The notes beneath the pieces are model-generated. The model made no database searches, was not told where the DNA came from, and was given only the letters and a program-made list of their open reading frames with translations. A stretch of DNA of 40,532 bases from a virus. Below, piece after piece: positions 1,280 through 32,507 of the stretch; the first letter of the stretch is position 1; each line of letters opens with the position of its first letter. The position numbers and the translations under genes are program-made. The stretch lies in the IMG/VR virus record IMGVR_UViG_3300010370_000005. One strand, written 5' to 3'.

Positions 1280-2167
1280 TTACGGTAATGTACAAATGAG
1301 GTGGCCGTCATTGTTGACAGAGAAGACATTGCCTGACGCGCCAAGGAAATAGTCCTCATAATTGTTTACGTCAAAAGAATCAGCAGCTCCAATGACAGAC
1401 TTATCTAGGATCAGTGAACCATTGGAGGTTCTAAACCCGTAGAAAATAGAGTTGTCTTGTGGAGGAGCGATTGTCTCGTAGCCAGAACGGTCTGACTTGA
1501 TGCGAATAAACTTAAGCTCGTCGCCAGGAACCAAGGTTGGCAGACCAGCATTTGATAGAGTTGTGGCGGCTGATGCCGCTGCTGCCGAAGCCGTAGATGC
1601 CGAAGCCGAAGCTGCCGTTGCTGCTGCCGTTGCAACTGCTGCGTTGCTTTGAGCATTTGCAATGTCAGTGGTTGTAGGACCCATGGCAACCTTTGTGCCG
1701 GTTGCATCAACGACTAAGGCTTTGTTTGCTTGAAACTCAGCAACACGAATAGCGGTCACTGTACTGGTTTCAACAACCTGTAGTGAACGGTCAAGCTGCT
1801 CTTGCAACTGCGTAGCAATGATTGTCAGGCGGTCAAGAGCGCCTTCGTGGGTTTCTGCTGGGAAAGGATCGCCTTCAGTGTAGTCCACTGTCTGGACAAT
1901 CGGCGTGCCACGAAGAATCACAATCTTAAAACCAGCCGCAAGGTTGGTGTTTAGCGTGATCGTAGCAAACTTAGTCGAAGCGTTGATTGTGACTGTGTAG
2001 TCGTAAGGTGCAGCACCACCACGCGTTCTCAGAGTCTGATTGCTTGCTGTGTCAACAGTAAAAACCTTTAGATCGTCCAAACCCTGGACGGTCGCATTAA
2101 AGTAGAAGGTGCTTGTTGAACCAGTGCCAACCTGGACAACGCGTTTAATTTCGGTTTGAACTGTCAT
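1280..2167 (-). CDS. Tail fibre / fibre-adaptor protein with a T7 gp17 N-terminal-like domain and an Ala/Ser-rich linker
   Basis: 295-aa ORF. VDYTEGDPFPAETHEGALDRLTIIATQLQEQLDRSLQ resembles the conserved podovirus tail-fibre N-terminal (virion-attachment) motif. It lies immediately upstream of the large fibre gene. Confidence 0.65.
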   Translation of the reverse strand: MTVQTEIKRVVQVGTGSTSTFYFNATVQGLDDLKVFTVDTASNQTLRTRGGAAPYDYTVTINASTKFATITLNTNLAAGFKIVILRGTPIVQTVDYTEGDPFPAETHEGALDRLTIIATQLQEQLDRSLQVVETSTVTAIRVAEFQANKALVVDATGTKVAMGPTTTDIANAQSNAAVATAAATAASASASTASAAAASAATTLSNAGLPTLVPGDELKFIRIKSDRSGYETIAPPQDNSIFYGFRTSNGSLILDKSVIGAADSFDVNNYEDYFLGASGNVFSVNNDGHLICTLP

Positions 2168-4683
2168 TGCGTAAGACTCCTTAAACTACCTCCGTATGGG
2201 ATCGACTCGCTAGGCGGTACGAAAAACTGCTGATTATTTTCTTGCATTATACGGCCTTCCATCCGACGAAGATACCCTGGATTGACCATTTCTTGGAGCT
2301 CGTACAAAATCAAATAGTCCAGGGCTTGTCTAGTATAGAACAGATTGATGAACGGGGTGTTGTTTATAACTGTCCGCATAACGTTCGCGCCAACGTCTTC
2401 GCCTGTACGGATGCGGGTAAAAATCTCAGCTAGGTCATCTACCTGTCCGAAGGTAGGACCTGCTAGGGTTGACAGGAATGAACGACCATATCGGCTGTAT
2501 TCTCCGAAAAGGAAGTCACCATAGATACCTAGGCCTCCGCCTTGGCTCATTGCGGCAAACATCAGCTTGGCATCTTTCTCAGGTTCACCAGTAAACTGAC
2601 GTGGTTCGCGGCCCTTGATAATGTCTTTAGCCATCATCGAAGCATATCCGAACAGGGTTGTACCAGCTATCAAATGTACTAGTCCCATTACGTCGGGCTT
2701 ACCGTCGGCTGCTCCATAGACCTCGCGGCCAAGACCACGGCGAATCATCGTGATTGGGAAGGCCTTAAACTGCATGATCAATCGGATGACTTCACCCTCC
2801 ACAGTACCAGTCTCGGTGCCTTGGCTCATGATGGCGCGTTCAGCAGCTCCTGGCATTGGAACCGCGAAGTCTGATCGATCTTGGAAGTAAGTATCTAGGC
2901 GAGATACCAGCTCGTTTCTAGCGGTTGTAATGTCCCTAGCTGACGGCTTGGCAGTTCCTTTGTCCATCAGGTATTGTTTAATCGTCGCGTCGTCTAACTC
3001 TTCAATGCCCTCGCTGACCATGTATGAGTTGCCGTCGTCTGCTTTACGGATCGCGTGCTTACGGTAAAGATCCCATTCGGTTTGTCCGATGTCGTATTGA
3101 CGAAGAACGTTGGTCAGTTGGTCTCCAAGGCTGCTGTACTGCATGCCAGACTTTTTAGCCAGGCTAGTACTCATAACCAAGGCAACCCCTGTCCTGTTGG
3201 TGTCGTTCCACCAGCTCATCAGGTTGAGTTTAAAGAATCGCTGCTGCAACTTGGCCATGGTTCCAGGTAAGGTATCCTGAGCACCAAACCGGGCCGTTGT
3301 GTCTCCAATGATACCATCAAACCCAATGCCAAGAAGGCGGGCAATCTCCTTTCGCTCAAGGTCTCCTCGACCCTTAAACACGTTCGCGATTGTCTCGCCG
3401 TACGACTTAAGCAGCGGCATGCCTTGGTAACGGAGCTCAGCGGCTTGGTTAGGAATATCAGTGATTGACGAGACCACGGCACCGCCAAGCTTTGCCATGT
3501 TCTGAATAGACCTAGTAATCGCACCAATCTTTGCCAGGCTAACGTTTGCTGGAATACGAGTTGTCCCATCGATTTCCTTGAGCATGTTTGTCAGGTTTTT
3601 CTTTGACAGCTCGTCGTACATCTTTGGATTGTCGCGGTACTTGATCTTTAACTCAGTCACCATGCGATCAAATGTGGCTACAGGGTTTGTGCCAAGGCCT
3701 TCCATCAAGGCTGTATTCCTGGCCATGTGCTCAAGACTGCTAGTGATTGATTCACGTAGGTCTTGTGTGCCGTATTGCTCGTTGTACGCCATGAACGAGT
3801 CAGCATCTTTGAAGTGCAAGATACGTTCCTGACTCATCTTCTTAGCTAGGTTTGCAGGACCCTTAAAGCCATGCAAGAAATTGCTTTCACTATCGCCTTT
3901 GAATCTCTTATGCAAGCCAGTGCTTAGACCTAGATAAGCACCTTTAAGGAATTCTTCGGCATCAGCCCCTCTAAACGTAGCGTCAATGTCGAGCTTGTCA
4001 ACAATGAATTGTTTCCACTGCTCATAGCCTGCTTTACGCAGTTTCTCCATGTCATGACTTTGGCGGAACATATAGCCAGGGCGAGCTTGTATATAAGCCC
4101 CTGCGTCATTGGCTCGTTTAATCGCAGTCATCTGGTACTTGTGGATGACAGCAGCTATTTCCTGAGCAACAGGGTTGTTAGAAATTCCTGGTTGACCTTC
4201 AGGTTTAATTTCAAACAGCTCGCGGGCAATGTCGTCGTCCATGTGGCCATTGCTGAAATGAACAAGCAAGTCATTTTTCTCTAGATCGTGGATTAAACGA
4301 CCAAGATACTTGTTGGCCAGGGCTTTGCCTTGCGCGTCAATGCTGAGTTTAGAACCTACTTTACTTCTCACAGAGCCAACCATCAAAGCTTTAAGGCCCT
4401 CAGCTGGGCTGTCAAACTTAGCCAAGAAGTTGTAGTTCTGCGCCATGACCTTTGCGTTGATCATGGTGTTGCGCTTCTCAAGAGCAGCTGCTAAGATTGA
4501 ATCATTCAAGCGTTGCTGCAAGTGAGCTGCAATCGTGGCATCTAGATTTTCAGGCGCCAGCATTTGCTTCTTAGACGTCAAGAACGTATCGATCTCAGAC
4601 AGCAAATCGCCAGCCTGCTGGTCAGTGATCTTGCCTTCGCCAGCTGCTTTCTTAATGATATTCAAACAGTCTTGCATTGCCAT
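2164..4683 (-). CDS. Large internal virion / DNA-ejection protein (839 aa)
   Basis: Long ORF in the structural arm, coupled by a 4-nt overlap to the next gene. The C-terminus has Gly-rich hydrophobic segments (VMGLVHLIAGTTLFGYASMMA, SQGGGLGIYGDFLFG). I recognised no enzymatic motif. Confidence 0.55.
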   Translation of the reverse strand: MAMQDCLNIIKKAAGEGKITDQQAGDLLSEIDTFLTSKKQMLAPENLDATIAAHLQQRLNDSILAAALEKRNTMINAKVMAQNYNFLAKFDSPAEGLKALMVGSVRSKVGSKLSIDAQGKALANKYLGRLIHDLEKNDLLVHFSNGHMDDDIARELFEIKPEGQPGISNNPVAQEIAAVIHKYQMTAIKRANDAGAYIQARPGYMFRQSHDMEKLRKAGYEQWKQFIVDKLDIDATFRGADAEEFLKGAYLGLSTGLHKRFKGDSESNFLHGFKGPANLAKKMSQERILHFKDADSFMAYNEQYGTQDLRESITSSLEHMARNTALMEGLGTNPVATFDRMVTELKIKYRDNPKMYDELSKKNLTNMLKEIDGTTRIPANVSLAKIGAITRSIQNMAKLGGAVVSSITDIPNQAAELRYQGMPLLKSYGETIANVFKGRGDLERKEIARLLGIGFDGIIGDTTARFGAQDTLPGTMAKLQQRFFKLNLMSWWNDTNRTGVALVMSTSLAKKSGMQYSSLGDQLTNVLRQYDIGQTEWDLYRKHAIRKADDGNSYMVSEGIEELDDATIKQYLMDKGTAKPSARDITTARNELVSRLDTYFQDRSDFAVPMPGAAERAIMSQGTETGTVEGEVIRLIMQFKAFPITMIRRGLGREVYGAADGKPDVMGLVHLIAGTTLFGYASMMAKDIIKGREPRQFTGEPEKDAKLMFAAMSQGGGLGIYGDFLFGEYSRYGRSFLSTLAGPTFGQVDDLAEIFTRIRTGEDVGANVMRTVINNTPFINLFYTRQALDYLILYELQEMVNPGYLRRMEGRIMQENNQQFFVPPSESIPYGGSLRSLTQ

Positions 4684-4684: not shown

Positions 4685-7600
4685 TTACATTCCCTTCTGG
4701 ATACAAACAGCGGCGGCTTGAGCTGCTTTGTGCATTGTCACCGCGTCTGCTTGTTGTTGGTCCAGTGTCTTCAATTCATTTTCCAAAGTTGTTTTTAAAG
4801 CAGTGCTTAGCTCAGGATCCATGTTGGCAAGTTCAGCTTCTAAGTTTGCTTGTAAAGACTCTAACTCGGAATCAACAAGTTTTAAATCATTTTCAATTGC
4901 TTTCATGGTATCAGCAACTGCATCCTTAGGTTCACCTAGCATAGGCGTAGGATCAGCGGCACTGCTTGGCTGTGCCTGGTAAGCTTTTGCCATCTTAAGT
5001 TTCTGTGCATCACTTGCTTCAAACGGCAAAGCACGCACGTTGTCAGGCAAGACCTCAATAACAACCATAGGATCGCCAAACTCGTGACTTGGTTTATAGA
5101 CTTCTTTAATCCTATATTTCATGCCGCGATTGATAAGCAGTTCTGTCTCTGAGTGAGAAGAAATAGCGCCAGCCATCGTAGCCTTAGTTCCTTCAGGAAC
5201 TAGGATCTTTGTCATTGGTGACTTGCCCTTGTAACTGCCGTGAAACTTCTTGGCCGTTTCAACGTTAAATGACGTACTAGTAAACCCATGCATCGTGATG
5301 AACTTACCTTCAAGCGCCTTTAGCATGTTGTAAGCCTTGTCACCATCGATCGTTTGATCCCAAACAAATTGGTTTGCCCCGGGCAAATCTTTAAGCAGGT
5401 CATTAAACGTGGTGTAGCGAACATTGCCTCGCCATACCTCATACTTCTCGGTTGTCTCAGGAATCTTTTTAAATATCGAGTCCAGCAGCGCGACTCTCTT
5501 ATCCATGTTGGCGTCAATGGGTTTACCAAGGACTTCTTTGCCCCACAAATACTGGTTGAGCGAAACGTAATCTGAGTTTGTGTACCCCTTTAACGCAGAC
5601 ATTTCGCTTGGTGTAAGCGTGGTTTGAAGCTTATCGTAAAACTTATCTAAGAATTTCTTAGCATCGTTGTAATTAAAAAATTTAACCGTGCCTTGCTCTT
5701 TAGCAACTTCCTTGGCAACATTATCAAAAGTCTTTTCAAGGTCTAGACGACGAAAACCTAGAGTTTCCTTTAAGCTTGCGCCTAACTGGGGATCCATACC
5801 GTGCAGCACCGCCGTATCAACAAGCTTGTTGACTTCTTCTTGCGGTATTTTTAGAATCCTAGCCACGGCTTCTTCCGTGTCTTTAAGACTGATCTCTCCA
5901 AAGACATCAGGATTCTTTTGCAACAGGGTTTTGTATTCACCAACGGTTGGTTTAAACTCCGCGCCTTTAGGAGCACCTTGCGCTCTAAACAACAAAGCAC
6001 CACCTGGGTCAATACGCCAAACAACGCCTTTGCCTTCAATCAACTGCATGTTGTAGTTAGGAGCATTGCCGACAACATCCCAGTTTGCCAAGTAGGCGTC
6101 AATGATCATGTTCTTAGCAAAAGCCTCGCGCTGTTCTTTTGGCAGTTGCTTAAACTCAGCAGGAGAAATTGTTTTCATGCCCTTGATGTAATCACTGGCA
6201 ACCCCAACAACCTTATCGCCGTCTTGCACAATTGTTGTTTTGGGCATTGCAACACCGTACCAGCGATACAGTGTAGCAGCAACCCACTCATTCAAGGATT
6301 GGTTTGCTTCTTGATACTTGACGTAGTAAGGACTGTTGTCGTTCTTGTCTAAGTGGAGACCGCCCTTATTTGTACCTTCTTGCTTACCAACTTGTTCAAG
6401 GTTACCTACGTCAAACGCGGTGTCATAGCCAGCAAATGAGTTGTACACATCGCCATAGGTTTGCAAGTACGCGTCAGGATCAAACAAGACAGACTCAACA
6501 GCTTGCTTGCCTTTAGGATTTAGATCATTAAAGACTTCTTTTGTAGGGTCTTGTACAAAAAGACTTTGCATGGAATCTTCAGGACCAAAGACGACGTCGT
6601 GTTGGTTTTGCTTTGGATCAAAAACAGCGTTCTTGACTTCCATCACGTGAGTCAAGTTGTTTTTAGCAAGCTGATACGAACCCTTGTAGGAAATGTCTAG
6701 TGAACCCTCCTCAACAGAGACGCCATGGATGGCTAACAAGTCTTTAAGGTCTGACGACACCTTGCTCATGTCAATCGTGCCTTTTTCAGCAAAGGCTTTT
6801 GACGTCAACAACCCAATTGGCGAATCACGATTTGCTTTGACAGCCATAACTTGACCGTCTTTTGTGCGCACGTAAAATGCCACGTTGTTTTGCAACCCGT
6901 TCTTTGTAGCCATCGTTACGGCTTCGGCGAAGTCAGGGTCTTGCATGGCTTTAGCAACTTGCGCTGCGGTAACCTTAGCTGCCTTAGGACCTGTGGCTTG
7001 CTCCATCAAGCTAAGACTTGTCTCGACATCTTGATAAGGCTTGTAGTGCTTGATTGGGTTTGATGCCTGCAACTCAGAATCAAACTTTGTAGCAGAGGCT
7101 GTCAAGTATGGATCGTAGACTTGCTCACCAGGTTTTAGTGGATCAAGAGTAACTGCTCCAGCAACCGGGGCCTCAGCATCAGGGTTGACTGCGTAAACTT
7201 TATTAGAGGCTCCAACAGTAGCAATCTGACTTATTTCAACGTCTTTGCCGTTGCCTAACTGCTTGATTGAAGTTTCAAGAGCTGCTGCATGGCTGCGTTG
7301 ACGAAGACCCTTGTAGCCGTCGTAAAACTTACCACCAACAGCAAATAGACCACCGCCTGCAACAGTGCCAAAAGCAATGTTGGTCAGTGAGTCCATCATG
7401 TCGTAGTCTGCTTTTTCTTGTATCTTTGCAGAATAGATAAGCGGTTCAACACCAAGAGATCCCACAAAGCCAGCTTCAGCGCCTCGCATAAAACGACTGG
7501 CAGTAACGCCTAACTTCGCGTATCTAGCCTCACCAATGATTGGCACAAAGCCAATGGCAAGACCCACAGGATCAAAGATCGCCGTGCCCATAGCCAAACC

Positions 7601-8161
7601 AAAACCAACTGAGTTGTCAACAAAACCTTGTGCACGACCCATCGTACTGGCCAAACGTTGTTCTTCTAGTTTGCGCTTATGCTGAATAGAAGCTACAAGA
7701 CTGCTGACAGGCTTATCCCAGCTAAGGTGTCCTGGAATGCCAAACTTAGTATTTGCCTCATCTGGCTGCAGCATTGTTGGCCGCTCAGTAAGGCCAAATT
7801 CCTCTATTGTTGGACGTCTTTTGTAACCGTCCCGGCCACCTCGAGAATTGTTGTGTCTTTGGTTGTAGAGTTTCTTTAGATCGTCGTCGTTGTAGTTCGT
7901 TAACTCTTCAGCTCGACGAATCTCGTTCATTCGAGAAATAGAGTCAATACCGGTTTCTCTCCAACCAGCAGTGATGGCTGCGTCAGCTACTTGCCCAGTG
8001 GTCGATCGCAAGTCATCAAAGCCAAAACTTTGAAACCACTGCGAAGGAGCATATGGAGTAAAGTTTTGACTGAGATTGCGCGCCTGATCAACAACCTGTT
8101 GGTTAACAGGATCGTTTGCTTGGCGGGCGTTGAGCGTCGTTTTTTTTACTTTTTCAACCAT
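4685..8161 (-). CDS. Internal virion / ejection protein in the T7 gp16 position (1158 aa), carrying a PI3/4-kinase-like region and a C-terminal R-S-ExE ADP-ribosyltransferase domain
   Basis: Position follows the gp14- and gp15-like genes. N-terminal Gly-rich membrane segments are present (VGFGLAMGTAIFDPVGLAIGFVPIIG). ART motifs are LKGYTNSDYVSLNQYL, EVWRG, GFTSTSF and SETELLI. The kinase-like string is IIDAYLANWDVVGNAPNYN...WRIDPGGAL. Confidence 0.8.
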   Translation of the reverse strand: MVEKVKKTTLNARQANDPVNQQVVDQARNLSQNFTPYAPSQWFQSFGFDDLRSTTGQVADAAITAGWRETGIDSISRMNEIRRAEELTNYNDDDLKKLYNQRHNNSRGGRDGYKRRPTIEEFGLTERPTMLQPDEANTKFGIPGHLSWDKPVSSLVASIQHKRKLEEQRLASTMGRAQGFVDNSVGFGLAMGTAIFDPVGLAIGFVPIIGEARYAKLGVTASRFMRGAEAGFVGSLGVEPLIYSAKIQEKADYDMMDSLTNIAFGTVAGGGLFAVGGKFYDGYKGLRQRSHAAALETSIKQLGNGKDVEISQIATVGASNKVYAVNPDAEAPVAGAVTLDPLKPGEQVYDPYLTASATKFDSELQASNPIKHYKPYQDVETSLSLMEQATGPKAAKVTAAQVAKAMQDPDFAEAVTMATKNGLQNNVAFYVRTKDGQVMAVKANRDSPIGLLTSKAFAEKGTIDMSKVSSDLKDLLAIHGVSVEEGSLDISYKGSYQLAKNNLTHVMEVKNAVFDPKQNQHDVVFGPEDSMQSLFVQDPTKEVFNDLNPKGKQAVESVLFDPDAYLQTYGDVYNSFAGYDTAFDVGNLEQVGKQEGTNKGGLHLDKNDNSPYYVKYQEANQSLNEWVAATLYRWYGVAMPKTTIVQDGDKVVGVASDYIKGMKTISPAEFKQLPKEQREAFAKNMIIDAYLANWDVVGNAPNYNMQLIEGKGVVWRIDPGGALLFRAQGAPKGAEFKPTVGEYKTLLQKNPDVFGEISLKDTEEAVARILKIPQEEVNKLVDTAVLHGMDPQLGASLKETLGFRRLDLEKTFDNVAKEVAKEQGTVKFFNYNDAKKFLDKFYDKLQTTLTPSEMSALKGYTNSDYVSLNQYLWGKEVLGKPIDANMDKRVALLDSIFKKIPETTEKYEVWRGNVRYTTFNDLLKDLPGANQFVWDQTIDGDKAYNMLKALEGKFITMHGFTSTSFNVETAKKFHGSYKGKSPMTKILVPEGTKATMAGAISSHSETELLINRGMKYRIKEVYKPSHEFGDPMVVIEVLPDNVRALPFEASDAQKLKMAKAYQAQPSSAADPTPMLGEPKDAVADTMKAIENDLKLVDSELESLQANLEAELANMDPELSTALKTTLENELKTLDQQQADAVTMHKAAQAAAVCIQKGM

Positions 8162-8169: not shown

Positions 8170-10500
8170 TTAAGGAAATGAATTTTGAGTAGGGAACATG
8201 TCTATAGGCACGTTCTTCTGAGGCAACAAATTAGGATTGCTGAGTTGCTTGAAAGTAAAAAACACCTGCTTGCCTTGCTTATCGATAACTGGCTCAACAA
8301 CACCGTTAACTTCTACAACAAGTTGTATGGCTCCACCATCGCCCATATTGATCCAGTAACCTTGCTTTGCAATCGTGCCAAGATACTGTTCGTGGCGATA
8401 TTCCGGTTGTTTTGCTAAGGCTGGATTAAATGAACCTGGGGTTTGAATTTGAACGTATTGGCCAAGTAGTTTTGGATCTTTACGCAAACGATCTGCATTG
8501 GTGTGCACGACCTTTGGACTATAGACTTCTTGTGCGGTTGTGCCAACTCTAGGTTTTGGTATGACATACGTGCCGCCATCAATGTCGTAACCCTCTGAAA
8601 GAATCGCAAAATTCTTTTTCAACAAGTCTTGCGGGTTGCCACCACCTTTATTGACTAATTCAGTGGCGGTCATTCTGACAGCAAGGTTTCGCATTGAATC
8701 AAAAAACTCCAAGCGCTGCGGTAAGTTTCCTGTCAATGCACGACGATATTGCTCGCCAATGCGAATAGACGTAGCTTCAAGGTCGGCATAACTTGTGCCT
8801 GAACTTTTTAAGTTGCCTAGGTTTTCGCGCAGAGTCTTGGTGTTTGACGTCAAAGCATTGATGATCTTAGGTTCAGCAGCTGTTCCCATGGCCTGCATTG
8901 CCCAGAAGTACTCAGGGGGCAATGGGTTAGGGCCGGTTTGCAATTGCCTAAAAACAATTTGCAACTGACCCATGTACTTGCCATCTTTACCGGCGTAACG
9001 TTCAGACATGCTTCTCAAGCGTATGCCCAAGTCTTGCGGACTGGCGCCCAACAAATAACTTTTTTCGTTTTCTACTTCGGCTTGACTCAAGACCTTAAGC
9101 TCATGTTGAGGCACGCCGTCTTTCATTTGAAGTGCAAGAACAGAATTTCTTGCTTCTCCAACATTGCCGTTCTTTGCTTGTTGCTGCACAGCGGGATTTT
9201 GCATCCAATAAGCAACTTGATCTCGAGAGCGCTGTTCAAGAATGCCATTAGCAACTGTGGCAACCTCATTTCTAATCCTTGCCTCGTCAGCTGCGTTTTC
9301 GCCACTCACCTGAATGTTCTTGACAAAAGGAGCAATGTCAGCCGTTTTCATGTTGGCTAATCCTTGCGTAAGACTGTGCACCTTCTTGGCTACGGTAATT
9401 TCACTCCAAGCTTTGTCAACTAGGATCTTTGAACGATCAACGTCTCTAGGATCTGTTTGGTCTGTTACGGCGGCAATAGCGGCTCTCAACGAGTCCTTAT
9501 CTTTAAACTGAGGAAGACCTACGCCTGTTGACCTAATAGAGGCAACGCTGTCTTCAATCGCGGTTTCTACTTTAAATTTTTCGTAGCCTAAAACCGTGTC
9601 CTTACTTGTCTTTGAAGAATTGAGCAACCTAGCATATTGATCACCAGTAAAGCCATACAGCTTTTCTAACTTAAATTTACCTTCAGGTGTTTCAGTTAAA
9701 GAACGCAAAGCAGCGTGTGCTGATTTTGGATCATCAGCAATCATGCGCATGAAAGCAACCTCAGCAATCTTGTTAAGGTTTTCCTTTGCTTTTTGTGTTG
9801 TCCCAGGGCGGACAACTCCAATGTACTTATCTAATCCTTCTGGTTTTACGCCAAGAGCTGCTAGACCCTTAAGACCTTCGGGTACCTTGTCTGCTGGCAT
9901 GTCTCCTAAAGCAACACGCCACATCATCATCGTGCTGTCTAGCTGCAGAGGATCGCGTGAAACAAGAGTAGCAGATTTTTCAAGTCCATCTGAAAGAGCT
10001 AATTCAGACGCCTGTACTCGAAACCGACTTTCTGTCTCAATGGCTCGACCAAGTGCAAACGTCGTAAAGTCAGCAGAAAACTTTTCGTACTCGTTGTCAA
10101 AATACTTGTTTGAGCCTGGTTTGCTGGTGTCGTTTTTGCTTAGTATCCTTGCCACCATGGCTCTTGTCTGATTGACGAGGGTCTTTCCATCAGCCTCATT
10201 AAGACTTAAGCCTTTGTAAAAATTGACGTTTTGCTCCTCTTGGTTAGACAGTTGCTCAAATTCCTCAAGAAACTGTTGGTTAGCTCCAGCAGAAGCAACT
10301 GCCATATCTAAGGTGGCAGTTTCTCGTTGATTCTGATCCCACCATTTAAAGGCAGTACCTGCTGCTTCCTGCACATCCTTACCTGCTTGAATAGTGCCAC
10401 GAGCTCCAAGAGTAAAAGCATCCCTATCCCTCGCATCAAGACCTTGCTGGTATGCTGTGGGAAGTGTGCCGCGTTTTTCGTAGGTAGGTATTCTTGGCAT
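8170..10500 (-). CDS. Internal virion protein in the T7 gp15 position (776 aa)
   Basis: Long ORF between the gp14-like and gp16-like genes. The call rests on synteny only; no catalytic motif was seen. Confidence 0.55.
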   Translation of the reverse strand: MPRIPTYEKRGTLPTAYQQGLDARDRDAFTLGARGTIQAGKDVQEAAGTAFKWWDQNQRETATLDMAVASAGANQQFLEEFEQLSNQEEQNVNFYKGLSLNEADGKTLVNQTRAMVARILSKNDTSKPGSNKYFDNEYEKFSADFTTFALGRAIETESRFRVQASELALSDGLEKSATLVSRDPLQLDSTMMMWRVALGDMPADKVPEGLKGLAALGVKPEGLDKYIGVVRPGTTQKAKENLNKIAEVAFMRMIADDPKSAHAALRSLTETPEGKFKLEKLYGFTGDQYARLLNSSKTSKDTVLGYEKFKVETAIEDSVASIRSTGVGLPQFKDKDSLRAAIAAVTDQTDPRDVDRSKILVDKAWSEITVAKKVHSLTQGLANMKTADIAPFVKNIQVSGENAADEARIRNEVATVANGILEQRSRDQVAYWMQNPAVQQQAKNGNVGEARNSVLALQMKDGVPQHELKVLSQAEVENEKSYLLGASPQDLGIRLRSMSERYAGKDGKYMGQLQIVFRQLQTGPNPLPPEYFWAMQAMGTAAEPKIINALTSNTKTLRENLGNLKSSGTSYADLEATSIRIGEQYRRALTGNLPQRLEFFDSMRNLAVRMTATELVNKGGGNPQDLLKKNFAILSEGYDIDGGTYVIPKPRVGTTAQEVYSPKVVHTNADRLRKDPKLLGQYVQIQTPGSFNPALAKQPEYRHEQYLGTIAKQGYWINMGDGGAIQLVVEVNGVVEPVIDKQGKQVFFTFKQLSNPNLLPQKNVPIDMFPTQNSFP

Positions 10501-10502: not shown

Positions 10503-11027
10503 TTAACTCTTAGAAGGTGTTATTTTTCCAGGGGTGACCGTGCCGGTAGGTTTGGACCCCCAAACACCCATTTGTTTGCCCATGTAAGCGGATTGAGCAC
10601 CACCAGAAAGAAGTGTACCCATAGCGCCTGTAACGCCTTGACGATACGCGGCTTCCCCTTGGAATCGAGACCCGGCTGCTTCTGCTTCAAAATTTTGTTT
10701 TTGCAATTGACCACCGTACAAAATAGCCATTTGCTCCATCGTGCCTTGAATGGTCGTATCTTCTTGAAGATCAAGAATGCTACCAGTCATCTGGTAACCG
10801 CTGGCTCCTGCAGCAGCTCGCTGAGAACCAATGATCCTGCGAAGTCGAGAAGCTTCTGCTTCTGCTTCATAAGCCGCTTTTTCTTCGGCAGCCTTGGCAT
10901 TACGCTCCATGATCTGAGCGTTATAGTCAGCCGCCTTTTTAGCGTCTTTACCGGCCTGGTATTGGCCATAGGCCTGCATCGCAGTGCCTGCGACCATGGC
11001 CGATACAATCATGACTTCAACACCCAT
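10503..11027 (-). CDS. Internal virion protein in the T7 gp14 position (174 aa), with an N-terminal hydrophobic segment and an Ala/Gln-rich body
   Basis: The ATG at 11027 lies 7 nt after GAGG; the track start at 11030 is TTG. The sequence MGVEVMIVSAMVAGTAMQAYGQYQAGKDAKK and its size and position match the small inner-core proteins of podoviruses. Confidence 0.55.
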   Translation of the reverse strand: MGVEVMIVSAMVAGTAMQAYGQYQAGKDAKKAADYNAQIMERNAKAAEEKAAYEAEAEASRLRRIIGSQRAAAGASGYQMTGSILDLQEDTTIQGTMEQMAILYGGQLQKQNFEAEAAGSRFQGEAAYRQGVTGAMGTLLSGGAQSAYMGKQMGVWGSKPTGTVTPGKITPSKS

Positions 11028-11436
11028 CAAAGAACCTCACGTATCTGTAGTGGTCTTTCTGATCTGGGCCCCACTGCCGCAGCGTCGATTCTCGCTCGTA
11101 GCCTAACCACTCTAACCAGCGAATTGCCGCTGAAAAATCTGACGGCACGGTCGTTTGAAGTCGATGCAGCTTGAGTTCCCTTCTTAAAAATTCCTGATTT
11201 AACTTTATGTACTTTATACACTGAATTTTGTGGTTCGGAAATAGTGCGGATGGAATCATGTACGATTCGGCCACGCCTTTCCACAAAGGAATGATCCCGG
11301 CAATAGCCAGGGGTTTTCCGTAGTCCACTGCCGTAAACGAAATTGAACTTCGTTCTAGGGCAATCTTGTCCGTGAAAACAGGCCAGAGGGGTTTGATGAA
11401 GTCTAGGTGCCATGGTTCAAATGGTACTACGATCAT
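11017..11436 (-). CDS. GNAT-like (acyl-CoA N-acyltransferase fold) protein in the T7 gp13 position
   Basis: Start refined to MIVVPFEPWHLDF, whose ATG overlaps the upstream TGA (ATGA coupling at 11433-11436). The C-terminal string LHRLQTTVPSDFSAAIRWLEWLGYERESTLRQWGPDQKDHYRYV resembles the RimJ/RimL-type GNAT core. Confidence 0.5.
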   Translation of the reverse strand: MIVVPFEPWHLDFIKPLWPVFTDKIALERSSISFTAVDYGKPLAIAGIIPLWKGVAESYMIPSALFPNHKIQCIKYIKLNQEFLRRELKLHRLQTTVPSDFSAAIRWLEWLGYERESTLRQWGPDQKDHYRYVRFFDGC

Positions 11437-13469
11437 CTCTCTGAAACCGTCATTGCGTACATGATTGCCAGTACGGTGCATGGATGCGGAGTATCAGACT
11501 GCACGAGCAACTCAAACTGTCGTTCAGGAGCATGCTGTACCAATACTCGTTTGTCCCCTGTGAACAACCTAATTGAGCCCATAGGCATAGCACCAGACCG
11601 GAAAGGAATGATCTCTAGGGCTGCTCCGTTGGCACCAAATTTCAAATTAAAGGTGTCTACGAGCCTGAAAGTCACGCGTTCAATGCGACGTATCTTTCCT
11701 TGAGAAGGACCTGTCTGGGTTTGAACCTCAGGGTCGAGGGTACGTACTCGAGCCACGTAAGGAAGACCGACACTTACCTTTGAGGCAGTACGCGCTAAAG
11801 TAATCGAACCTGAGCTAACAACGCGATCTGGATGAACAGCTCCGTCAGCTAGAATTTGAACTGTCTCGCCTTCTAAATGATCCAATCCGGAAAGAACACT
11901 AACGGGAGAACCATCATAACTAATGCCGCTATCAATAAAGAAAGCATCCTCAACCACCATTCCTTTCGCGGTATCAAACGATTTTTCTAAGTATTCAACG
12001 TACTGCACGGTTTGACCGTCAATAGTTCGCTGAACGACTAGGTACAAAACCTCTTCTGATTCGTCATTTTTTGGCACAACAGCAATTTGCTTGACTTGAA
12101 CATTTGTGCCGCCAATGATATGGCGATGCCAAGCAACAACTTCTTGATCTGGCTCGTATGATAAGCAGCGCAGTTCTCCGGTCTGCAGCAACGTCCACAC
12201 CAAGTTGTCAGGAGAACGCGCGTAGGCAATTTGCTTGACGTTGCCAGTAGTAATGTGTTCTGCAAGCAGCGTAAGGTCTACTGAGGTGTAGCCGTCAATG
12301 TTGATGTCGTAAGACAATTCACGTACTTTTAAACGTGAACGGTCAATATACAGGGTAGTTCTACTTGCACCAACAGGGCGTTCGTTGGCAGTGCCGTCAG
12401 TAGTTTCACGAGAGATCGTTGCGTTTGTAGGTGTCAGCGCTTCATAGTTTCGTCCTGCTGACAAGATGAAAGGACCATCTGACGTACCAAGCTGCAAACG
12501 CTTTTCGCCGTAAATCCATCTAATCGCGTTCACCTGGTCAGTTGCCAAGGTTAAATTTAAAGCCGAGTCATCAAGTACTTCTGCCTTGGCGTTACTAGGA
12601 CTGAATGACTTAAAGTCAGAAGTTCGCGTACTCCAAATGGTCGCAGGCTTTGACGCGCTTGCAGCAAAGAATAAACGTTCTTGGAAGAACGCAACTGAGG
12701 TTGGCCAACCAAGAGTATTTGACCAAGCACCTAGTCTCCAATCCTTTGTGGCGTTACCAGCACCAGTAGAGCCAAATGGAAAGTCAGGGTCAACAACGAC
12801 AGTAACAGTTGTTGGGTTTGTGTAGGCAGTAATGGTGCCTGCGCCCCAAACGGCAGGAGAACCATTTTTAAAACGAAACCAGCGCCCAACGTCAGTGGCT
12901 GCAAAAATACCACTGCTTGACGTAATAGTAGCTGTGCCAGTTAAAGCAGACGTGTGTACTGTTACAGTACCTGTGTTCACGTCGTTGTATGGACCATCTT
13001 TGTACAAGTAAAGGTCTAATGACCAGTTAGTAGGTCCTAAACGATTTAATGTTCTTGGTTGATAGTCTTTGTGAACTAGGTAAAGAACGTCGGCAGACTG
13101 AGTGAAATCAAGATTGTCAAGATCGTCTTCTGACCAAGGCGAAATGATCTCGTAAGGAGCCGTGCCTGTTCCATTAAGTAAGACAGATTCATTTCTGTAA
13201 AACCTAATGTAGTAGTGACCAAACTCAAGGATGTATGCTTGTTCAGTTGAAAAGATAAAAGGAATAAGTTTGACCTTGCGGTTGCTAAACTTTACCTCTG
13301 TGATAAAACGCGTACCTGAACGCTTAGTGATGCCGCCGTGAGAGAAGATGATAAAGTTCTCGCAGCGCTCAATTGACGTTGCGTATTTTTGCAAGTCAAC
13401 ACGACCGTACAAACGAGGAGAAATCTCCCCGCCGGTAAAGTTAGTTTGAATTGGCGTTGTACGAGACAT
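11433..13469 (-). CDS. Tail tubular / nozzle protein (T7 gp12 position, 678 aa)
   Basis: The N-terminus TPIQTNFTGGEISPRLYGRVDLQKY...GGITKRSGTRF is a motif I recognise from podovirus tail-tube proteins. The gene follows the adaptor-like gene. Confidence 0.6.
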   Translation of the reverse strand: MSRTTPIQTNFTGGEISPRLYGRVDLQKYATSIERCENFIIFSHGGITKRSGTRFITEVKFSNRKVKLIPFIFSTEQAYILEFGHYYIRFYRNESVLLNGTGTAPYEIISPWSEDDLDNLDFTQSADVLYLVHKDYQPRTLNRLGPTNWSLDLYLYKDGPYNDVNTGTVTVHTSALTGTATITSSSGIFAATDVGRWFRFKNGSPAVWGAGTITAYTNPTTVTVVVDPDFPFGSTGAGNATKDWRLGAWSNTLGWPTSVAFFQERLFFAASASKPATIWSTRTSDFKSFSPSNAKAEVLDDSALNLTLATDQVNAIRWIYGEKRLQLGTSDGPFILSAGRNYEALTPTNATISRETTDGTANERPVGASRTTLYIDRSRLKVRELSYDINIDGYTSVDLTLLAEHITTGNVKQIAYARSPDNLVWTLLQTGELRCLSYEPDQEVVAWHRHIIGGTNVQVKQIAVVPKNDESEEVLYLVVQRTIDGQTVQYVEYLEKSFDTAKGMVVEDAFFIDSGISYDGSPVSVLSGLDHLEGETVQILADGAVHPDRVVSSGSITLARTASKVSVGLPYVARVRTLDPEVQTQTGPSQGKIRRIERVTFRLVDTFNLKFGANGAALEIIPFRSGAMPMGSIRLFTGDKRVLVQHAPERQFELLVQSDTPHPCTVLAIMYAMTVSER

Positions 13470-18993: not shown

Positions 18994-19449
18994 CTATCTC
19001 CTTTTCTTAAAAAGGTTACCTACTACTTCGTAACCCAGGAGATGGTACAGCTGTGCCGTTCTCTCTGGGGCCACTTGCGTTGACGTAGCTGGACAAATTT
19101 CCTTTGCACCGCGCTCAAACGCCCAATCTTCAAATGCCTGGATTAGCCTCACGGCTGCCAGACTACCTCGCTTCGTTGGGTCTACAAACAAAGCCAGATC
19201 GACCGCCATCCGGTCGTTACTGAAATAATACTCTGTCAGAAGCCCCGCGTACATGGCAATTATAGTGCCGTCTTTTTCGGCTAGGTGCAAAAAGTATTCG
19301 TCAGGTGTAGCAATCATGTGGCTCACTAGGTGAGCTACCTTTTCGGGGTTATACGTACAGACCTGCGGATAGTGCGACTCGTTGAAGATCCCGGCTGACA
19401 GTTCTAGGACTCGAGGTACGTCGTCGACCGTGGCAGGGCGAATGATCAT
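18994..19449 (-). CDS. GNAT-family N-acetyltransferase (151 aa)
   Basis: The string IRPATVDDVPRVLEL...LFVDPTKRGSLAAVRLIQAFEDWAFERGAKEI...AQLYHLLGYEVVG matches GNAT motifs A and B (acetyl-CoA binding R/KxGxxA). Confidence 0.75.
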   Translation of the reverse strand: MIIRPATVDDVPRVLELSAGIFNESHYPQVCTYNPEKVAHLVSHMIATPDEYFLHLAEKDGTIIAMYAGLLTEYYFSNDRMAVDLALFVDPTKRGSLAAVRLIQAFEDWAFERGAKEICPATSTQVAPERTAQLYHLLGYEVVGNLFKKRR

Positions 19450-24157: not shown

Positions 24158-25132
24158 ATGGCTCACTTAATCGAATCCATGGCATACGCCAACTCAACTC
24201 CCTGGCACGGTCTAGGTAACCAGGTCAGTGATGCATTAACCCCGCAAGAGATGATCCTTGCTGCCGGTCTTGATTGGACCGTCAGTCGCAGATCTATGTT
24301 CACCACCCAGTCAGCTGCTGACTTTCAGGCTTCAGAAGCAACTCTGAAGACCAACGATTGGGGCGTCCTCGTTCGTGATTCAGACAACAAGATCCTAGGT
24401 CCTTGCGGCAAGAATTACGTGCCCATGCAGAACAGCGAAGTTTTTGCCTTCTTCGATCGCTTTGTCAAAGCAGGTCACATGAAGATGGAAACCGCAGGAT
24501 CCTTAGACGGTGGCCGTCAGGTCTGGGGCCTTGCTGCCATCAACAAGGGCTTTGCTTTGCCCGGCGGTGACGAAGTCAACGGATACTTGCTGCTCAATCA
24601 GCCGCACGTCTGGGGTAAGTCCTTGACCATCATGTTTACGCCCATCCGAGTCGTCTGCAACAACACCTTGACGCAAGCTCTCGGACAAGCTGGTGAGCGC
24701 TTTACCATGTCGCACATACGCCAGTTTGACCAGGATGTCATCCAGAAGGCCGAAACAGCCTTAGGTCTTGCTACCCATCAACTTGATGCTTTCAAGGCCA
24801 CTGCGGAGCTCCTAGCAAGAGTGTCGTACCAAGAAAACAAGGTCACTGAGTACATCGCCAAGCTTTTCAATCCAGCTCTTGTTGGCGGCGAAATAACCCG
24901 AGACCAATTTACAAGATCCGCGGACGAAGTCTATAATTGCATTCACACGCAGCCAGGTGCAGACTTGTCCGAAGGTTCATGGTGGTCTGCCTTGAATGCG
25001 GTTACGTTCTACGTTGATCACAAAGCCGGTCGCAACCGCGATGCTGCCTTGAATTCGGCGTGGTTTGGCCCGCGAGCCGCTCTCAAGCGGAAGGCCTTAG
25101 ACCTGGCAGTCGAGTACGCGCAAGCTGCCTAA
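24158..25132 (+). CDS. DUF932 / phage-plasmid-like protein (TIGR03299-type, 324 aa)
   Basis: The N-terminus MAHLIESMAYANSTPWHGLGNQV...TPQEMILAAGLDWTVSRR matches the characteristic start of DUF932 proteins, as I recall the family. The SD is gaaaggag. Confidence 0.7.
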   Translation: MAHLIESMAYANSTPWHGLGNQVSDALTPQEMILAAGLDWTVSRRSMFTTQSAADFQASEATLKTNDWGVLVRDSDNKILGPCGKNYVPMQNSEVFAFFDRFVKAGHMKMETAGSLDGGRQVWGLAAINKGFALPGGDEVNGYLLLNQPHVWGKSLTIMFTPIRVVCNNTLTQALGQAGERFTMSHIRQFDQDVIQKAETALGLATHQLDAFKATAELLARVSYQENKVTEYIAKLFNPALVGGEITRDQFTRSADEVYNCIHTQPGADLSEGSWWSALNAVTFYVDHKAGRNRDAALNSAWFGPRAALKRKALDLAVEYAQAA

Positions 25133-25148
25133 TAAAGGAGAAACCAGA

Positions 25149-25376
25149 ATGGTGACTTACCGGTTCATTCAAGTGCCTGAACAGGCCTTGGCTAAACAGG
25201 CAAAGGCCATTCTGGCGATCCTTGAAGAAGCGCATGAAATTGGCAAAACTGAATTGTTGACCCTGATTTCTGCTCGTCTCAAGAGTCGCCAGAAGCCCCA
25301 ACGTCTGTTGTCCTATTATCAGGGCAGCTTGATTAAAGCAGGGGCTATAGAAACAATACGTTCTGTGGTACGATAG
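25149..25376 (+). CDS. Hypothetical small protein (75 aa)
   Basis: SD aaaggag; helical composition, possibly a winged-helix fold. No motif recognised. Confidence 0.5.
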   Translation: MVTYRFIQVPEQALAKQAKAILAILEEAHEIGKTELLTLISARLKSRQKPQRLLSYYQGSLIKAGAIETIRSVVR

Positions 25377-25438
25377 TCACGGAGTCGTTCCGAGGCCGAC
25401 TTTAAATGCCTCGACCACCCCTTTAGAAAGGAAAATGT

Positions 25439-26278
25439 ATGGCAAATGAAAGAGGAAAAGCAATCGATAAGACATTCCTGTCTGTCGACAACGCTGAGGA
25501 ACGCGGGTTCTTGCACCGTGATTACATCGCCCATTGTCTTCGCTGGACGCACGTCGTCAAGTGGCTGCATCAAGGCGGTCGTTACAAAACGGCTCGGATC
25601 CTAGACGTTGGTTGCGGTAAAGAGATGCCGTTGGCCAAGCTCATGCACTCGTCTCGTCTTGGTCCCCAGTTCTACGCAGCTGCCGACGTCAGCAAATTGT
25701 CAATGCCAGACCAGTTTGCCAAGTCAACTTGGAAACCCAGTCAGTTGCTAGGCGAGTGTGATGCAGCCGTTTTGAAGCCAGAGCAAATAGAGCAGACGCC
25801 AAATACGATCGTCTGTTTTGAAGTTGCCGAACACATTGAACCAGAGCACTGCCGTCGTTTACTGGCCAACTTTGGCAACTTGCTAGAGCCAGAAGGCACC
25901 TTGTTTATCTCAACGCCTTGTTGGGATCCTGATGTAGGAGCCGCTGCGAACCACGTCAACGAGATGACTTACCTTGCTTTTGGCGCTTTGCTAGAAGACG
26001 TAGGTTGGCGTGTTGAAGGTCATTGGGGCACGTTCGCCTCGATGCGCGATTACAAAGACGAGTTGCCACCAGCACACAAGGAGGTGTTTGATGCAATGCG
26101 AGACTACTACGACAGCAACTACTTGGCAACCATTTTCGCGCCGCTTTATCCATCGCGCAGTCGCAATTGTTTGTGGCAGCTTAAGTGGAACCCAGGCGGT
26201 GGCAGACAATTCCCTGATCTACGTGATGTCGAAGGACGTTGGGGTAGTTCAGAGAAGTGGCGAGAGCTTCTTGCTTAA
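25439..26278 (+). CDS. Class I SAM-dependent methyltransferase, small-molecule type (279 aa)
   Basis: Motif I is ARILDVGCGKE. Post-I/II features are VCFEVAEHIEPE and LLEPEGTLFISTP. I saw no DPPY/NPPY and no PCQ...ENV DNA-methyltransferase motifs. Confidence 0.75.
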   Translation: MANERGKAIDKTFLSVDNAEERGFLHRDYIAHCLRWTHVVKWLHQGGRYKTARILDVGCGKEMPLAKLMHSSRLGPQFYAAADVSKLSMPDQFAKSTWKPSQLLGECDAAVLKPEQIEQTPNTIVCFEVAEHIEPEHCRRLLANFGNLLEPEGTLFISTPCWDPDVGAAANHVNEMTYLAFGALLEDVGWRVEGHWGTFASMRDYKDELPPAHKEVFDAMRDYYDSNYLATIFAPLYPSRSRNCLWQLKWNPGGGRQFPDLRDVEGRWGSSEKWRELLA

Positions 26279-26352
26279 TGTAGGTTGGTTTTTGGTGGCG
26301 ATGATCTCATTGATCATCGTCATTTTATGGATTGAAATTAGAAAGGACAAAC

Positions 26353-26715
26353 ATGTGGAACGACATCAAAGCATTTCACGAGAAATTCGGCCTGCAATAC
26401 GACGGGCCGCCAAGGGACTTGCCCAAAGAGTTGGCAAGCTTTCGGATCGGTTTCATCTTTGAGGAACTCGATGAACTCATTGTCGCCGAAAATAAAACCG
26501 ATCAGCTCGACGCGTTGGTGGACCTCTGCTACGTGGTCATGGGCACTGCTTATCTACAAGGCTTCGACTTCCAAGCCGCGTGGGACCGAGTCCATGCTGC
26601 AAACATGGCGAAAGTCCGTGGTCCGTCAGCGCGCAGTCAAGCTTTCGATGTCATCAAGCCCGAGGGCTGGACTGCTCCAGATCTATCGGACCTAGCAGGA
26701 GAAGGCAATGGCTGA
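26353..26715 (+). CDS. MazG-like all-alpha nucleoside triphosphate pyrophosphohydrolase (120 aa)
   Basis: Start refined to MWNDIKAFHEKFG after the SD aaagga. The string RIGFIFEELDELIVAE...QLDALVDLCYVVMGTA...VHAANMAKV fits the EExxE...DxxD metal-binding pattern of phage MazG/HisE-like proteins. Confidence 0.75.
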   Translation: MWNDIKAFHEKFGLQYDGPPRDLPKELASFRIGFIFEELDELIVAENKTDQLDALVDLCYVVMGTAYLQGFDFQAAWDRVHAANMAKVRGPSARSQAFDVIKPEGWTAPDLSDLAGEGNG

Positions 26716-31661: not shown

Positions 31662-31985
31662 ATGATGACTGTATTCGTGGTGCAAGAGCCACGCGGAATT
31701 AACCTAATGCCGGCTGAACAGTATGGCGAGCTTAAGGTGCTGTTGCCTCCAGGCAACGTGGCTTACAGTGCTGCGCCCACAGTGGCTAGGTTAAAGCGAG
31801 GACTTGCGAGATTTACTGACAACGATTACCTACTCATGGTTGGCGATCCTGCCGCTATCGCAGTAGCAGGCGCCGTAGCAACGATGCTGAACAATGGACG
31901 CATGAAAGTGCTGAAGTGGGATCGTCAAGAGATGCGGTATTACGTGGTTGAATTTGATCTAATGAGGAGAAGCGATGACTACTGA
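31662..31985 (+). CDS. Hypothetical protein (107 aa)
   Basis: SD aaaggag immediately before ATGATG; no motif recognised. Confidence 0.55.
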   Translation: MMTVFVVQEPRGINLMPAEQYGELKVLLPPGNVAYSAAPTVARLKRGLARFTDNDYLLMVGDPAAIAVAGAVATMLNNGRMKVLKWDRQEMRYYVVEFDLMRRSDDY

Positions 31986-32502
31986 TGTCACACCAGGCGA
32001 CGACAGCCTGAAAGTCGTAGCTGAATTAGCAGCTAAGCAAGTGCAGCTTGAGAAAGAGATAGAGGATTTAGAAGCGCAGTTGAAAGAGAAGACAGAAGCC
32101 TTGTCCCAAGTACAGGAAAAGGATTTACCTGAAGCCATGACTGAGTGCGGCATCAGTGAGTTCAAGCTTGTCGATGGCAGCAAGATTACTGTCAAGCCTT
32201 TCTACCAAGCTAATCCTCCTAAGGAAAAGTACGAAGAAGCCATGCAATGGTTACGCGACAATGGTCATGGAGACTTGATCAAGAACGACGTGACAGTTAG
32301 CTTTGGCAAAGGTGAAGATGCAAATGCCGTGGACTTCAAGACCTTCTTGAAAGACAATGGTACTTCATACACCGACAAGACAGGAGTCCATGCTATGACG
32401 TTCAAAGCGTTTGTGCGTGAACAAGTGGAATCAGGTAGGAACTTGCCCTTCGACCTGTTAGGTATTTACATTGGGCAGAAAGCAACCATCAAGAAAGGAT
32501 AA
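31975..32502 (+). CDS. Hypothetical coiled-coil protein of the recombination/replication module (175 aa)
   Basis: SD aggaga. The N-terminal heptad-rich segment is AELAAKQVQLEKEIEDLEAQLKEKTEAL. The position upstream of the SSB-like gene recalls Gp157-like proteins, but this is weak. Confidence 0.45.
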   Translation: MTTDVTPGDDSLKVVAELAAKQVQLEKEIEDLEAQLKEKTEALSQVQEKDLPEAMTECGISEFKLVDGSKITVKPFYQANPPKEKYEEAMQWLRDNGHGDLIKNDVTVSFGKGEDANAVDFKTFLKDNGTSYTDKTGVHAMTFKAFVREQVESGRNLPFDLLGIYIGQKATIKKG

Positions 32503-32507
32503 CTTAA

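Follow-up and report, generated by a model that had tools for sequence, protein, structure and literature searches.

An ADP-ribosyltransferase and a kinase-like domain as predicted cargo of an ejection-operon protein in a phage genome with a T7-like tail module

The IMG/VR virus record IMGVR_UViG_3300010370_000005, a stretch of 40,532 nucleotides (nt) referred to here at its full length as the window, holds on its minus strand a gene for a protein of 1158 amino acids (aa) in which an ADP-ribosyltransferase (ART) domain of the R-S-ExE type lies directly downstream of a protein-kinase-like domain. The two folds with their intact and conserved catalytic residues, the position of the gene in an operon of internal virion protein (IVP) genes, and an architecture in which enzyme cargo is held within a conserved carrier together suggest that this ART protein is a carrier-cargo ejection protein that would modify host proteins at the start of infection. 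We would give this whole chain a probability of roughly 0.6. The gene and the elements of its ART domain are the following.

4685..8161, minus strand: the ART-carrying gene, 1158 aa with two enzyme cargo domains, an open reading frame (ORF) translated without a stop.
5096..5659, minus strand: the R-S-ExE ART domain, aa 835-1022, matching PF03496 with E=1.8e-25.
5546-5593, minus strand: the helix motif LKGYTNSDYVSLNQYL, aa 857-872, with Y860, N869, L872 and W873 invariant in 15 orthologues.
5429..5431, minus strand: the catalytic-site arginine R911, in EVWRG (aa 908-912), invariant in the 15 orthologues.
5270..5278, minus strand: S962-T963-S964, in GFTSTSF (aa 959-965), with S962 and S964, though not T963, invariant in the 15 orthologues.
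5141..5149, minus strand: E1005-T-E1007, the ExE of the ADP-ribosylating toxin turn-turn (ARTT) loop, in SETELLI (aa 1004-1010), both glutamates invariant in the 15 orthologues.

The Pfam profile ADPrib_exo_Tox (PF03496) reaches 89.9 bits on this domain, compared with a cut-off of 23.4, and is matched over positions 2-177 of its 196 positions, so the constellation of motifs is not a product of chance. The catalytic elements come in the expected order, with the arginine in beta-1, the Ser-Thr-Ser in beta-2 and the Glu-x-Glu in the ARTT loop. A preliminary description of this DNA had reported an ordered set of four ART motifs, and all four were found; it also had R911 and the two glutamates at the positions listed above, while its Ser-Thr-Ser, put at 5273-5281, was one codon out of register, that span being the one for T961-S962-T963. 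The domain matches two PHROGs, phrog_3895, "ADP-ribosyltransferase exoenzyme toxin" (5.6e-18), and phrog_802, "Alt-like RNA polymerase ADP-ribosyltransferase" (1.4e-8), and a phmmer search of PDB sequences returned Certhrax (2.4e-6) and Plx2A (2.8e-5), followed by CdtA, VIP2 and C2-I. In NCBIfam, the ART protein has a match to Certhrax alone, far below threshold. The orthologue set consists of 15 full-length metagenomic proteins, with 46-97% identity and PF03496 present in all of them. Mean pairwise identity is lowest for the ART, at 44%, and highest for the N-terminal module, at 71%.

A model of aa 815-1050 made with AlphaFold2 (AF2), built on the orthologues, shows the ART fold with an N-terminal helical subdomain at a mean predicted local distance difference test score (pLDDT) of 87.5. 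Foldseek comparison of the ART with the PDB found Certhrax (E=1.1e-15, template modelling (TM) score 0.71), C3bot (target-normalised TM score about 0.8) and Plx2A (0.81), along with CDTa, VIP2 and iota Ia; across Certhrax, C3, Plx2A, CDTa and VIP2 the TM scores of the model range from 0.65 to 0.81. Among predicted viral structures, the matches are phage proteins of the "VIP2-like" kind, a "MuF-like fusion" or MuF-ART, a "minor capsid protein"-ART, a "portal" and Alt proteins. The domain is thus a true ART of the Alt/VIP2/C3 clade, and very probably an active enzyme. In this toxin group, ExE, as opposed to the QxE of C3 and Certhrax, is the configuration tied to arginine as the acceptor, and the window's ART would on this ground be arginine-specific. 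The core of the preliminary description, an arginine-type (ExE) C3/VIP2/iota-like ART embedded in a large ejection-operon protein, is therefore upheld by Pfam, by Foldseek and by the orthologue alignment, with its invariant catalytic residues.

That description of the protein was right about the ART domain, but it missed both the kinase-like domain directly upstream and the variable slot in which the two are found. The features of the kinase-like domain are given here.

5726..6409, minus strand: the protein-kinase-like domain, aa 585-812, directly upstream of the ART, recognised from its AF2 fold and invariant motifs.
6317-6319 (K615) and 6008-6010 (D718), minus strand: kinase motifs invariant in the 15 orthologues, comprising the Gly loop GTNKGG (aa 596-601), YVK615, NE625W and the DFG-like RID718PGG.
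6083-6100, minus strand: the kinase catalytic loop D688-x4-N693, likewise invariant in the 15 orthologues.

The AF2 model of this region (pLDDT 85.7, predicted TM score 0.88) has the bilobal kinase fold. Its best Foldseek match in the PDB is the Ser/Thr kinase CtkA of Helicobacter pylori (E=2.3e-7, TM score 0.57), and the top 50 matches are all kinases. The Pfam family HipA_2, whose cut-off is 27 bits, reached 17.2 and stayed below threshold, and nothing beyond chance-level matches came from searching PDB sequences with a profile of the domain. The identification thus comes from the fold and the motifs, with no sequence match to a curated family, and the motifs were assigned to structural elements, namely the Gly-rich loop, the beta-3 lysine (K615), the alpha-C glutamate (E625), the catalytic loop and the metal-binding aspartate (D718), by their position in the AF2 secondary structure rather than by superposition. 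As modelled, aa 585-812 form a protein-kinase-like domain with an intact set of catalytic motifs.

A word-index search with a fragment of the domain gave one protein, while an exhaustive search of 1.84 billion representative proteins found 3986 relatives at E<=0.001, of which 1851 are at E<=1e-10. Most lie within proteins of 1000-7000 aa, and they bear no kinase name in their sources. Of the best 150 of these 3986, 148 were new proteins, and on these an ART profile was iterated locally. An ART of the R-S/C-ExE type also occurs in 96 of these 148 top representatives, starting no more than 400 aa downstream of the kinase-like domain in 81 of the 96, with a median gap of 152 aa. Drift of the iterated profile was considered and rejected, since, of the 127 domains matched, 117 retain the arginine and 115 and 122 the one and the other glutamate of the ExE. 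Pfam searches on samples of the kinase-like relatives gave ART (PF03496, PF01129), DRAT, NUDIX, WGR and Phage_Mu_F as partner domains. Pseudomonas phage Dolphis has a 1222-aa "ADP-ribosyltransferase" with the kinase-like domain upstream of its ART, and the domain also matches proteins annotated as ADP-ribosyltransferase in phages Jeremy, ST4 and fHe-Yen8-01. In the literature searched we found no description of a kinase-like and ART tandem in phages. The Pseudomonas syringae effector HopAG1 may combine ART, kinase-like and Nudix domains.

It is tempting to see in the kinase-like domain and the ART one conserved, functionally coupled two-enzyme cassette, and not two independent passengers, but we hold this idea to be doubtful. 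Were it correct, a shared substrate might be handled by one enzyme after the other: one host target could, for instance, be both phosphorylated and ADP-ribosylated, the ADP-ribose mark could itself be phosphorylated and so made irreversible, or the kinase fold could control the ART. Such a cassette would be delivered by the ejection apparatus and act before phage gene expression, possibly against NAD+-dependent host immunity.

The two enzyme domains are flanked by regions shared with proteins that have no such cargo, as follows.

7232..8044, minus strand: the conserved N-terminal carrier module (N-module), aa 40-310, matching phrog_3003 (2.7e-27) and phrog_342 (1.3e-9).
7523..7612, minus strand: hydrophobic Gly-rich segment 1, aa 184-213, GFGLAMGTAIFDPVGLAIGFVPIIG, with a transmembrane-like Kyte-Doolittle 19-residue maximum of 1.72 at aa 191-209.
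7331..7390, minus strand: hydrophobic Gly-rich segment 2, aa 258-277, SLTNIAFGTVAGGGLFAVGG, with a Kyte-Doolittle value of 1.27, under the usual transmembrane threshold.
6410..7201, minus strand: the middle region, aa 321-584, conserved among orthologues and with no Pfam match.
4688..4906, minus strand: the C-terminal helical or coiled region and the conserved tail ending in HKAAQAAAVCIQKGM, common to cargo-less orthologues.

By tblastn, the N-module matches "putative internal virion protein" genes of Pelagibacter phages, gp15 of Pseudomonas phage Ab31 and gp16 of Vibrio phage 1.182.O, and a profile search with it found 53 further proteins, mostly of 350-535 aa and without any Pfam domain. In a tblastn search with the whole ART protein, every record covered less than 80% of its length. 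Cultured relatives have positional orthologues of 489-579 aa, which share with the window protein the N-terminal 300 aa or so, both hydrophobic Gly-rich segments included, and the extreme C-terminal tail, while everything between differs. The tail motif KAxxAAxxCxIxKG aligns with Ab31 gp15, gp48 of Pelagibacter phage HTVC035P and Vibrio 1.182.O gp16, and A1146, A1147, A1149, A1150, V1152, C1153, K1156 and G1157 of the tail are invariant in the 15 orthologues. Since both the tail and the N-module are common to cargo-less orthologues, the cargo was inserted and not appended. Judged by these comparisons, the window protein is a carrier with some 600 aa of enzyme cargo between a conserved N-module and a conserved C-terminal tail.

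Within the N-module, segment 1 has D197, P198, G200, G204, F205, P207 and G210 invariant in the 15 orthologues, and it is possible that this putative segment inserts into a membrane. Segment 2 has G265, G269, G271, L272, F273, G276 and G277 invariant in the same set and is conserved as well in Ab31, HTVC035P and the Vibrio phage. The preliminary description had spoken of Gly-rich membrane segments near the N-terminus; the hydrophobic Gly-rich segments are real, but only the first is transmembrane-like.

The same slot holds other cargo in other proteins, some of which we refer to by our own numbers. An ART-PolyVal domain (PF18760, 3e-17) occupies it in Vibrio phage 1.182.O gp16 (L004 8944-10644), a protein annotated only as "coil containing protein"; two unrelated types of ART have therefore been recruited to the same carrier. 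ART-PolyVal with LPD3 is found there in P0020-23, and LPD23 with a metallopeptidase in P0018. P0010 (L007 6588-10811) and P0011 are ejection-operon proteins that each unite a NUDIX domain with the kinase-like and ART domains, and the NUDIX insertion site in both is the middle region (NUDIX PF00293 at aa 559-662 of P0010). In P0055, which is unrelated, a NUDIX domain likewise comes before the kinase-like domain. At least 12 further clusters at 50% identity combine the same N-module with kinase-like and ART cargo. The signature domains of polyvalent proteins (ART-PolyVal, LPDs, MPTase and others) occur in some proteins with this N-module, and Pfam found none of them in the window protein.

As to genomic position, the ART protein belongs, by gene order and homology, to the internal-virion or ejection-protein operon of a T7-like tail module, and the virus is a short-tailed phage (podovirus) from an environmental sample. 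The genes on the minus strand run in the order large terminase, portal, scaffold, major capsid protein, tubular tail A and B, IVP-A-position gene, IVP-B-like gene, a gene for a 776-aa protein, ART gene, a gene for an 839-aa protein, and tail fibre. This order matches that in Pseudomonas phage Ab31, Pelagibacter phage HTVC035P, Vibrio phage 1.182.O and the contigs of P0004 and P0010, and in the window as in these five related genomes or contigs the ART gene or its counterpart is inside the block downstream of tubular tail B, after the IVP-A- and IVP-B-like genes. The spacing of the ART gene is tight, with 8 nt between it and the stop of the upstream gene and 1 nt before the start of the downstream gene. 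The neighbours in the operon are these.

11017..11481, minus strand: the IVP-A-position gene, 154 aa, matching phrog_4177 (4e-24) and phrog_308, internal virion protein (2.3e-10).
10503..11030, minus strand: an IVP-B (T7 gp14)-like internal virion protein, 175 aa, matching phrog_418, internal virion protein (1.8e-31).
8170..10500, minus strand: the 776-aa protein, upstream of the ART gene in the same operon, with no family match.
2164..4683, minus strand: the 839-aa virion protein, downstream of the ART gene, a gp16/IVP-D-like operon member matching phrog_684 (8.8e-194) and, with its C-terminal part, phrog_342 (9.6e-17).

The gene on the P0010 contig that is syntenic with the IVP-A-position gene encodes an acetyltransferase, and IVP-A is described as an acetyltransferase by Hardies et al. 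(2016, PMC4819975). Pfam, PHROGs and NCBIfam give no match for the 776-aa protein; at the syntenic position, Ab31 and YA3 have genes with the annotation "endolysin" or "putative lysin".

The preliminary description had placed the ART in the gp16 position, and this does not stand. Four structural proteins follow the IVP-A-like gene, of 175, 776, 1158 (ART) and 839 aa, so that the ART protein is the third; the slot of the last large internal-virion gene, directly before the tail fibre, is that of the 839-aa gene. The latter's C-terminal match is to the PHROG bearing the product name of T7 gp16, "internal virion protein with endolysin domain" (phrog_342), and its homologues in Pelagibacter phages are annotated internal virion protein (D), including "internal virion protein D" in HTVC203P; directly against the T7 gp16 C-terminus, its similarity is weak (BLASTP, E=0.14). 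The ART protein matches only the middle of phrog_342, and partially, and Pfam, NCBIfam and PDB searches found in it no N-terminal lytic transglycosylase or muralytic domain of the gp16 type. With hhalign probabilities of 0.35% for the orthologue profile against T7 gp16 and 0.16% against gp15, we dropped the label "gp16" for the ART protein.

In the proposed course of events, late synthesis of the ART protein along with the rest of the structural proteins would be followed by its packaging into the core of the capsid. When infection starts, it would leave through the tail together with the remaining internal proteins and be anchored in the envelope by its hydrophobic N-module, leaving the kinase-like and ART domains exposed to the cytoplasm, where ATP and NAD+ would allow them to modify host proteins ahead of all phage gene expression. 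Packaging, ejection, cytoplasmic exposure, arginine specificity and the target are inferences. Incorporation into the virion seems quite probable to us. The T7 IVPs form a transient tube across the envelope (PMC4819975), and the same paper describes the IVP-D homologues N4 gp50 and H66 gp60 as joined to domains that "must certainly function intracellularly" and notes an extra large protein in the operons of the phiRIO-1 group. ARTs have been predicted to be packaged and injected (PMC5512222, PMC9503650), and gp16 of Pseudomonas phage YA3, a positional equivalent of the ART protein, was detected in virions by mass spectrometry (PMC7326022).

Several observations weigh against this reading. Homology between YA3 gp16 and the ART protein was sought and not detected, the hhalign probabilities against T7 gp15 and gp16 lie below 1%, with no detectable similarity, and a megablast of 25 kb against 50,697 phage records gave no match. 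The "internal virion protein" labels of the homologues are themselves annotations based on synteny. Two folded enzyme domains would need to unfold for the tail channel and refold afterwards, and only the first of the hydrophobic segments reaches transmembrane-like hydropathy. Finally, a scan of ORFs with PHROGs or Pfam, which covered chiefly those of 100 aa or more, revealed no gene for immunity, an ADP-ribosylhydrolase or a macro domain, although for a lytic phage such an absence is not a strong objection.

One could suppose instead that the enzymes act late, in the producer cell, on host or phage proteins, and that virion incorporation is incidental or serves assembly. The gene is indeed part of a late structural operon and tightly coupled to its neighbours there, and the ORFs scanned revealed no immunity gene to hold the enzyme in check during phage production. 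However, fusion to an internal-virion scaffold would be superfluous for an enzyme with a late role alone, and here the cargo sits within a conserved carrier of which both ends are kept, in a slot that elsewhere holds other effector-type domains typical of injected polyvalent proteins; we regard late action as unlikely. Equally, delivery might proceed as proposed while the ART, instead of modifying protein arginines, ADP-ribosylates nucleic acid, attaches NAD-capped RNA to proteins (compare T4 ModB) or chiefly consumes NAD+ or an NAD-derived immune signal, with the kinase-like domain and, in some orthologues, the NUDIX domain serving the same nucleotide chemistry. The frequent joining of the kinase-like domain to an ART (the 96 of 148 best representatives listed), and also to NUDIX, WGR and MuF, would fit this, such partners belonging to the NAD+/ADP-ribose network (PMC9503650). 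Yet the closest structures to the ART are all protein-modifying toxins (C3, Certhrax, Plx2A, CDTa, VIP2, iota), the kinase-like fold is nearest to protein kinases, and it is established that ExE is the arginine-specific form in that toxin group, so that we think nucleotide chemistry of this kind distinctly unlikely.

The resemblance of the ART to exotoxins that act on eukaryotic actin, Rho and vinculin, which are its closest solved structures, raises the further idea of a toxin against cells other than the host, be they competitors or eukaryotic grazers, released at lysis or borne on the particle as proposed for Bxa, a fusion of a phage head protein and an ART that shows that such proteins can act on eukaryotic cells. 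Pfam found no secretion or cell-entry domain (B-component, receptor-binding) in the window protein, though, its fusion partner is an ejection-operon protein, and with no lysogeny function recognised in the ORFs scanned the phage looks lytic; we find a toxin of this kind very improbable. Harder still to believe is that the two folds are inactive as enzymes and lend only structural bulk to the capsid core. Across orthologues with as little as 46% identity, neither domain varies in its catalytic residues although the surrounding sequence diverges, and of the 127 related ART domains 117 retain the arginine and 115-122 the ExE positions, a conservation pattern that strongly disfavours dead enzymes. 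A carrier-cargo ejection protein that modifies host proteins at the start of infection is thus the reading we prefer.

The window represents an entire phage genome, about 40.4 kb in size and with a GC content of 48.2%. Bases 1-123 recur exactly at 40410-40532, which makes the window either a circular assembly or a genome with direct terminal repeats, complete in both cases. In the ORFs scanned we identified neither a single-subunit RNA polymerase nor an integrase or any further gene for lysogeny, and on this last ground the phage looks lytic.

Some other genes merit mention. The product of the short tail-fibre gene has 295 aa, with an N-terminal adaptor domain only, and after this gene comes one for an RCC1/WD40-repeat protein (39678-40523, minus strand) that runs past the window end; a homologue of the latter on the P0004 contig has 655 aa. 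The repeat protein is probably the receptor-binding half of a two-piece fibre. A GNAT acetyltransferase gene (18994-19449, minus strand), additional to the IVP-A-position gene, lies between the genes for the large terminase and the portal. On the plus strand, the early or replication arm starts at 24158-26715 with genes for a DUF932 protein (5.3e-40), a class I methyltransferase (PF13489) and a MazG-like PRA-PH pyrophosphohydrolase (PF01503), which are candidate host-takeover or anti-defence genes. Also on the plus strand, at 31662-33257 between the DNA polymerase and the primase, three genes in a row match the Pam3 gp32-, gp33- and gp34-like families PF23992, PF23984 and PF23977, of unknown function.

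Injected phage proteins decide the first seconds of infection, and to our knowledge very few of them have been studied apart from T4 Alt and the N4 virion RNA polymerase. The window protein would offer a clean test case for whether a podovirus ejection apparatus can bring folded enzymes into the cytoplasm, for which bacterial proteins a phage ART hits first, and for why a kinase-like domain so frequently sits directly before such ARTs. The carrier, whose cargo slot accepts different domains, might further be seen as a natural scaffold for protein delivery.

Among known systems, the exotoxins C3, Certhrax, Plx2A, VIP2, iota and CDTa share with the window's ART the fold, the alpha-helical N-terminal subdomain and the set of R, STS and ExE or QxE. 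Identity to them is 19-25%, and the window protein differs in being without a binding or translocation component, in its place in a phage structural operon, and in acting presumably on bacterial proteins. T4 Alt is the functionally closest system, as an ART of the R-S-E clade and the Alt/VIP2 family (compare phrog_802 and the Alt proteins among the viral Foldseek matches), and the window protein is likewise predicted to travel inside the virion and to act on proteins of the host as soon as infection begins. Alt, by contrast, is a stand-alone protein of the head interior of a myovirus that is directed to the prohead and has no part in any channel-forming machinery for ejection. The podovirus ART of the window is inserted in a protein of a T7-like internal-virion operon with a kinase-like domain before it, and no similarity was detected outside the ART domain.

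The idea of an injected phage ART is already known, as something predicted and little tested, and in this respect the preliminary description overstated the novelty: fusions of virion-packaged Alt/VIP2-family ARTs to head or internal proteins, like polyvalent proteins that are injected, are known from earlier computational work (PMC5512222, PMC9503650). ARTs of the Alt/VIP2 family are often fused to head or portal proteins and probably injected (Iyer et al. 2022, PMC9503650). According to the same paper only about 3% of podoviruses encode an ART, which makes the window's lineage an uncommon one.

In architecture, the closest systems are the MuF-toxin fusions such as Bxa and the polyvalent proteins. 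The MuF fusions (the MuF-ART Bxa, and Apk2) likewise have a polymorphic C-terminal or internal toxin domain on a conserved capsid-internal carrier, and Bxa, an arginine-specific MuF-ART of the same superfamily with two immunity proteins, has been characterised biochemically (PMC11699363). The carrier in the window is not MuF, with no match to PF04233, and its cargo is internal and a tandem of two enzymes, with no adjacent immunity gene found. Polyvalent proteins combine several effector domains in one virion-associated polypeptide predicted to be injected with the DNA; ARTs are their commonest protein-modifying domain, and kinases occur too (Iyer et al. 2017, PMC5512222). The window protein, with two effector-type domains (kinase-like and ART) in a structural-operon protein, has the multi-domain character by which these proteins are defined (at least two such domains), and relatives with the same N-module carry ART-PolyVal, LPD3 and LPD23. 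It differs from them in that its ART is of the R-S-ExE Alt/VIP2 type, whereas ART-PolyVal is of the H-Y-D/E type, and in that its kinase-like domain keeps a helical C-lobe, whereas the kinase family of PMC5512222 has lost the whole C-terminal subdomain. A link to T7-like IVP operons is undiscussed in that paper, in which "gp16" and "internal virion" have 0 occurrences.

The fusions of IVP-D (the N4 gp50 virion RNA polymerase, and H66 gp60 with its methylase-like site) likewise are podovirus ejection proteins with a domain that could function only inside the cell (PMC4819975). In the window, by contrast, the cargo lies in a neighbouring protein that is not IVP-D, and its enzymes would modify the host rather than act on nucleic acids. 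What is new here, then, is a carrier from the T7-like ejection operon that is not IVP-D and takes its cargo into an internal slot, and the combination of a kinase-like domain with an R-S-ExE ART, a tandem that is very widespread and apparently unnamed.

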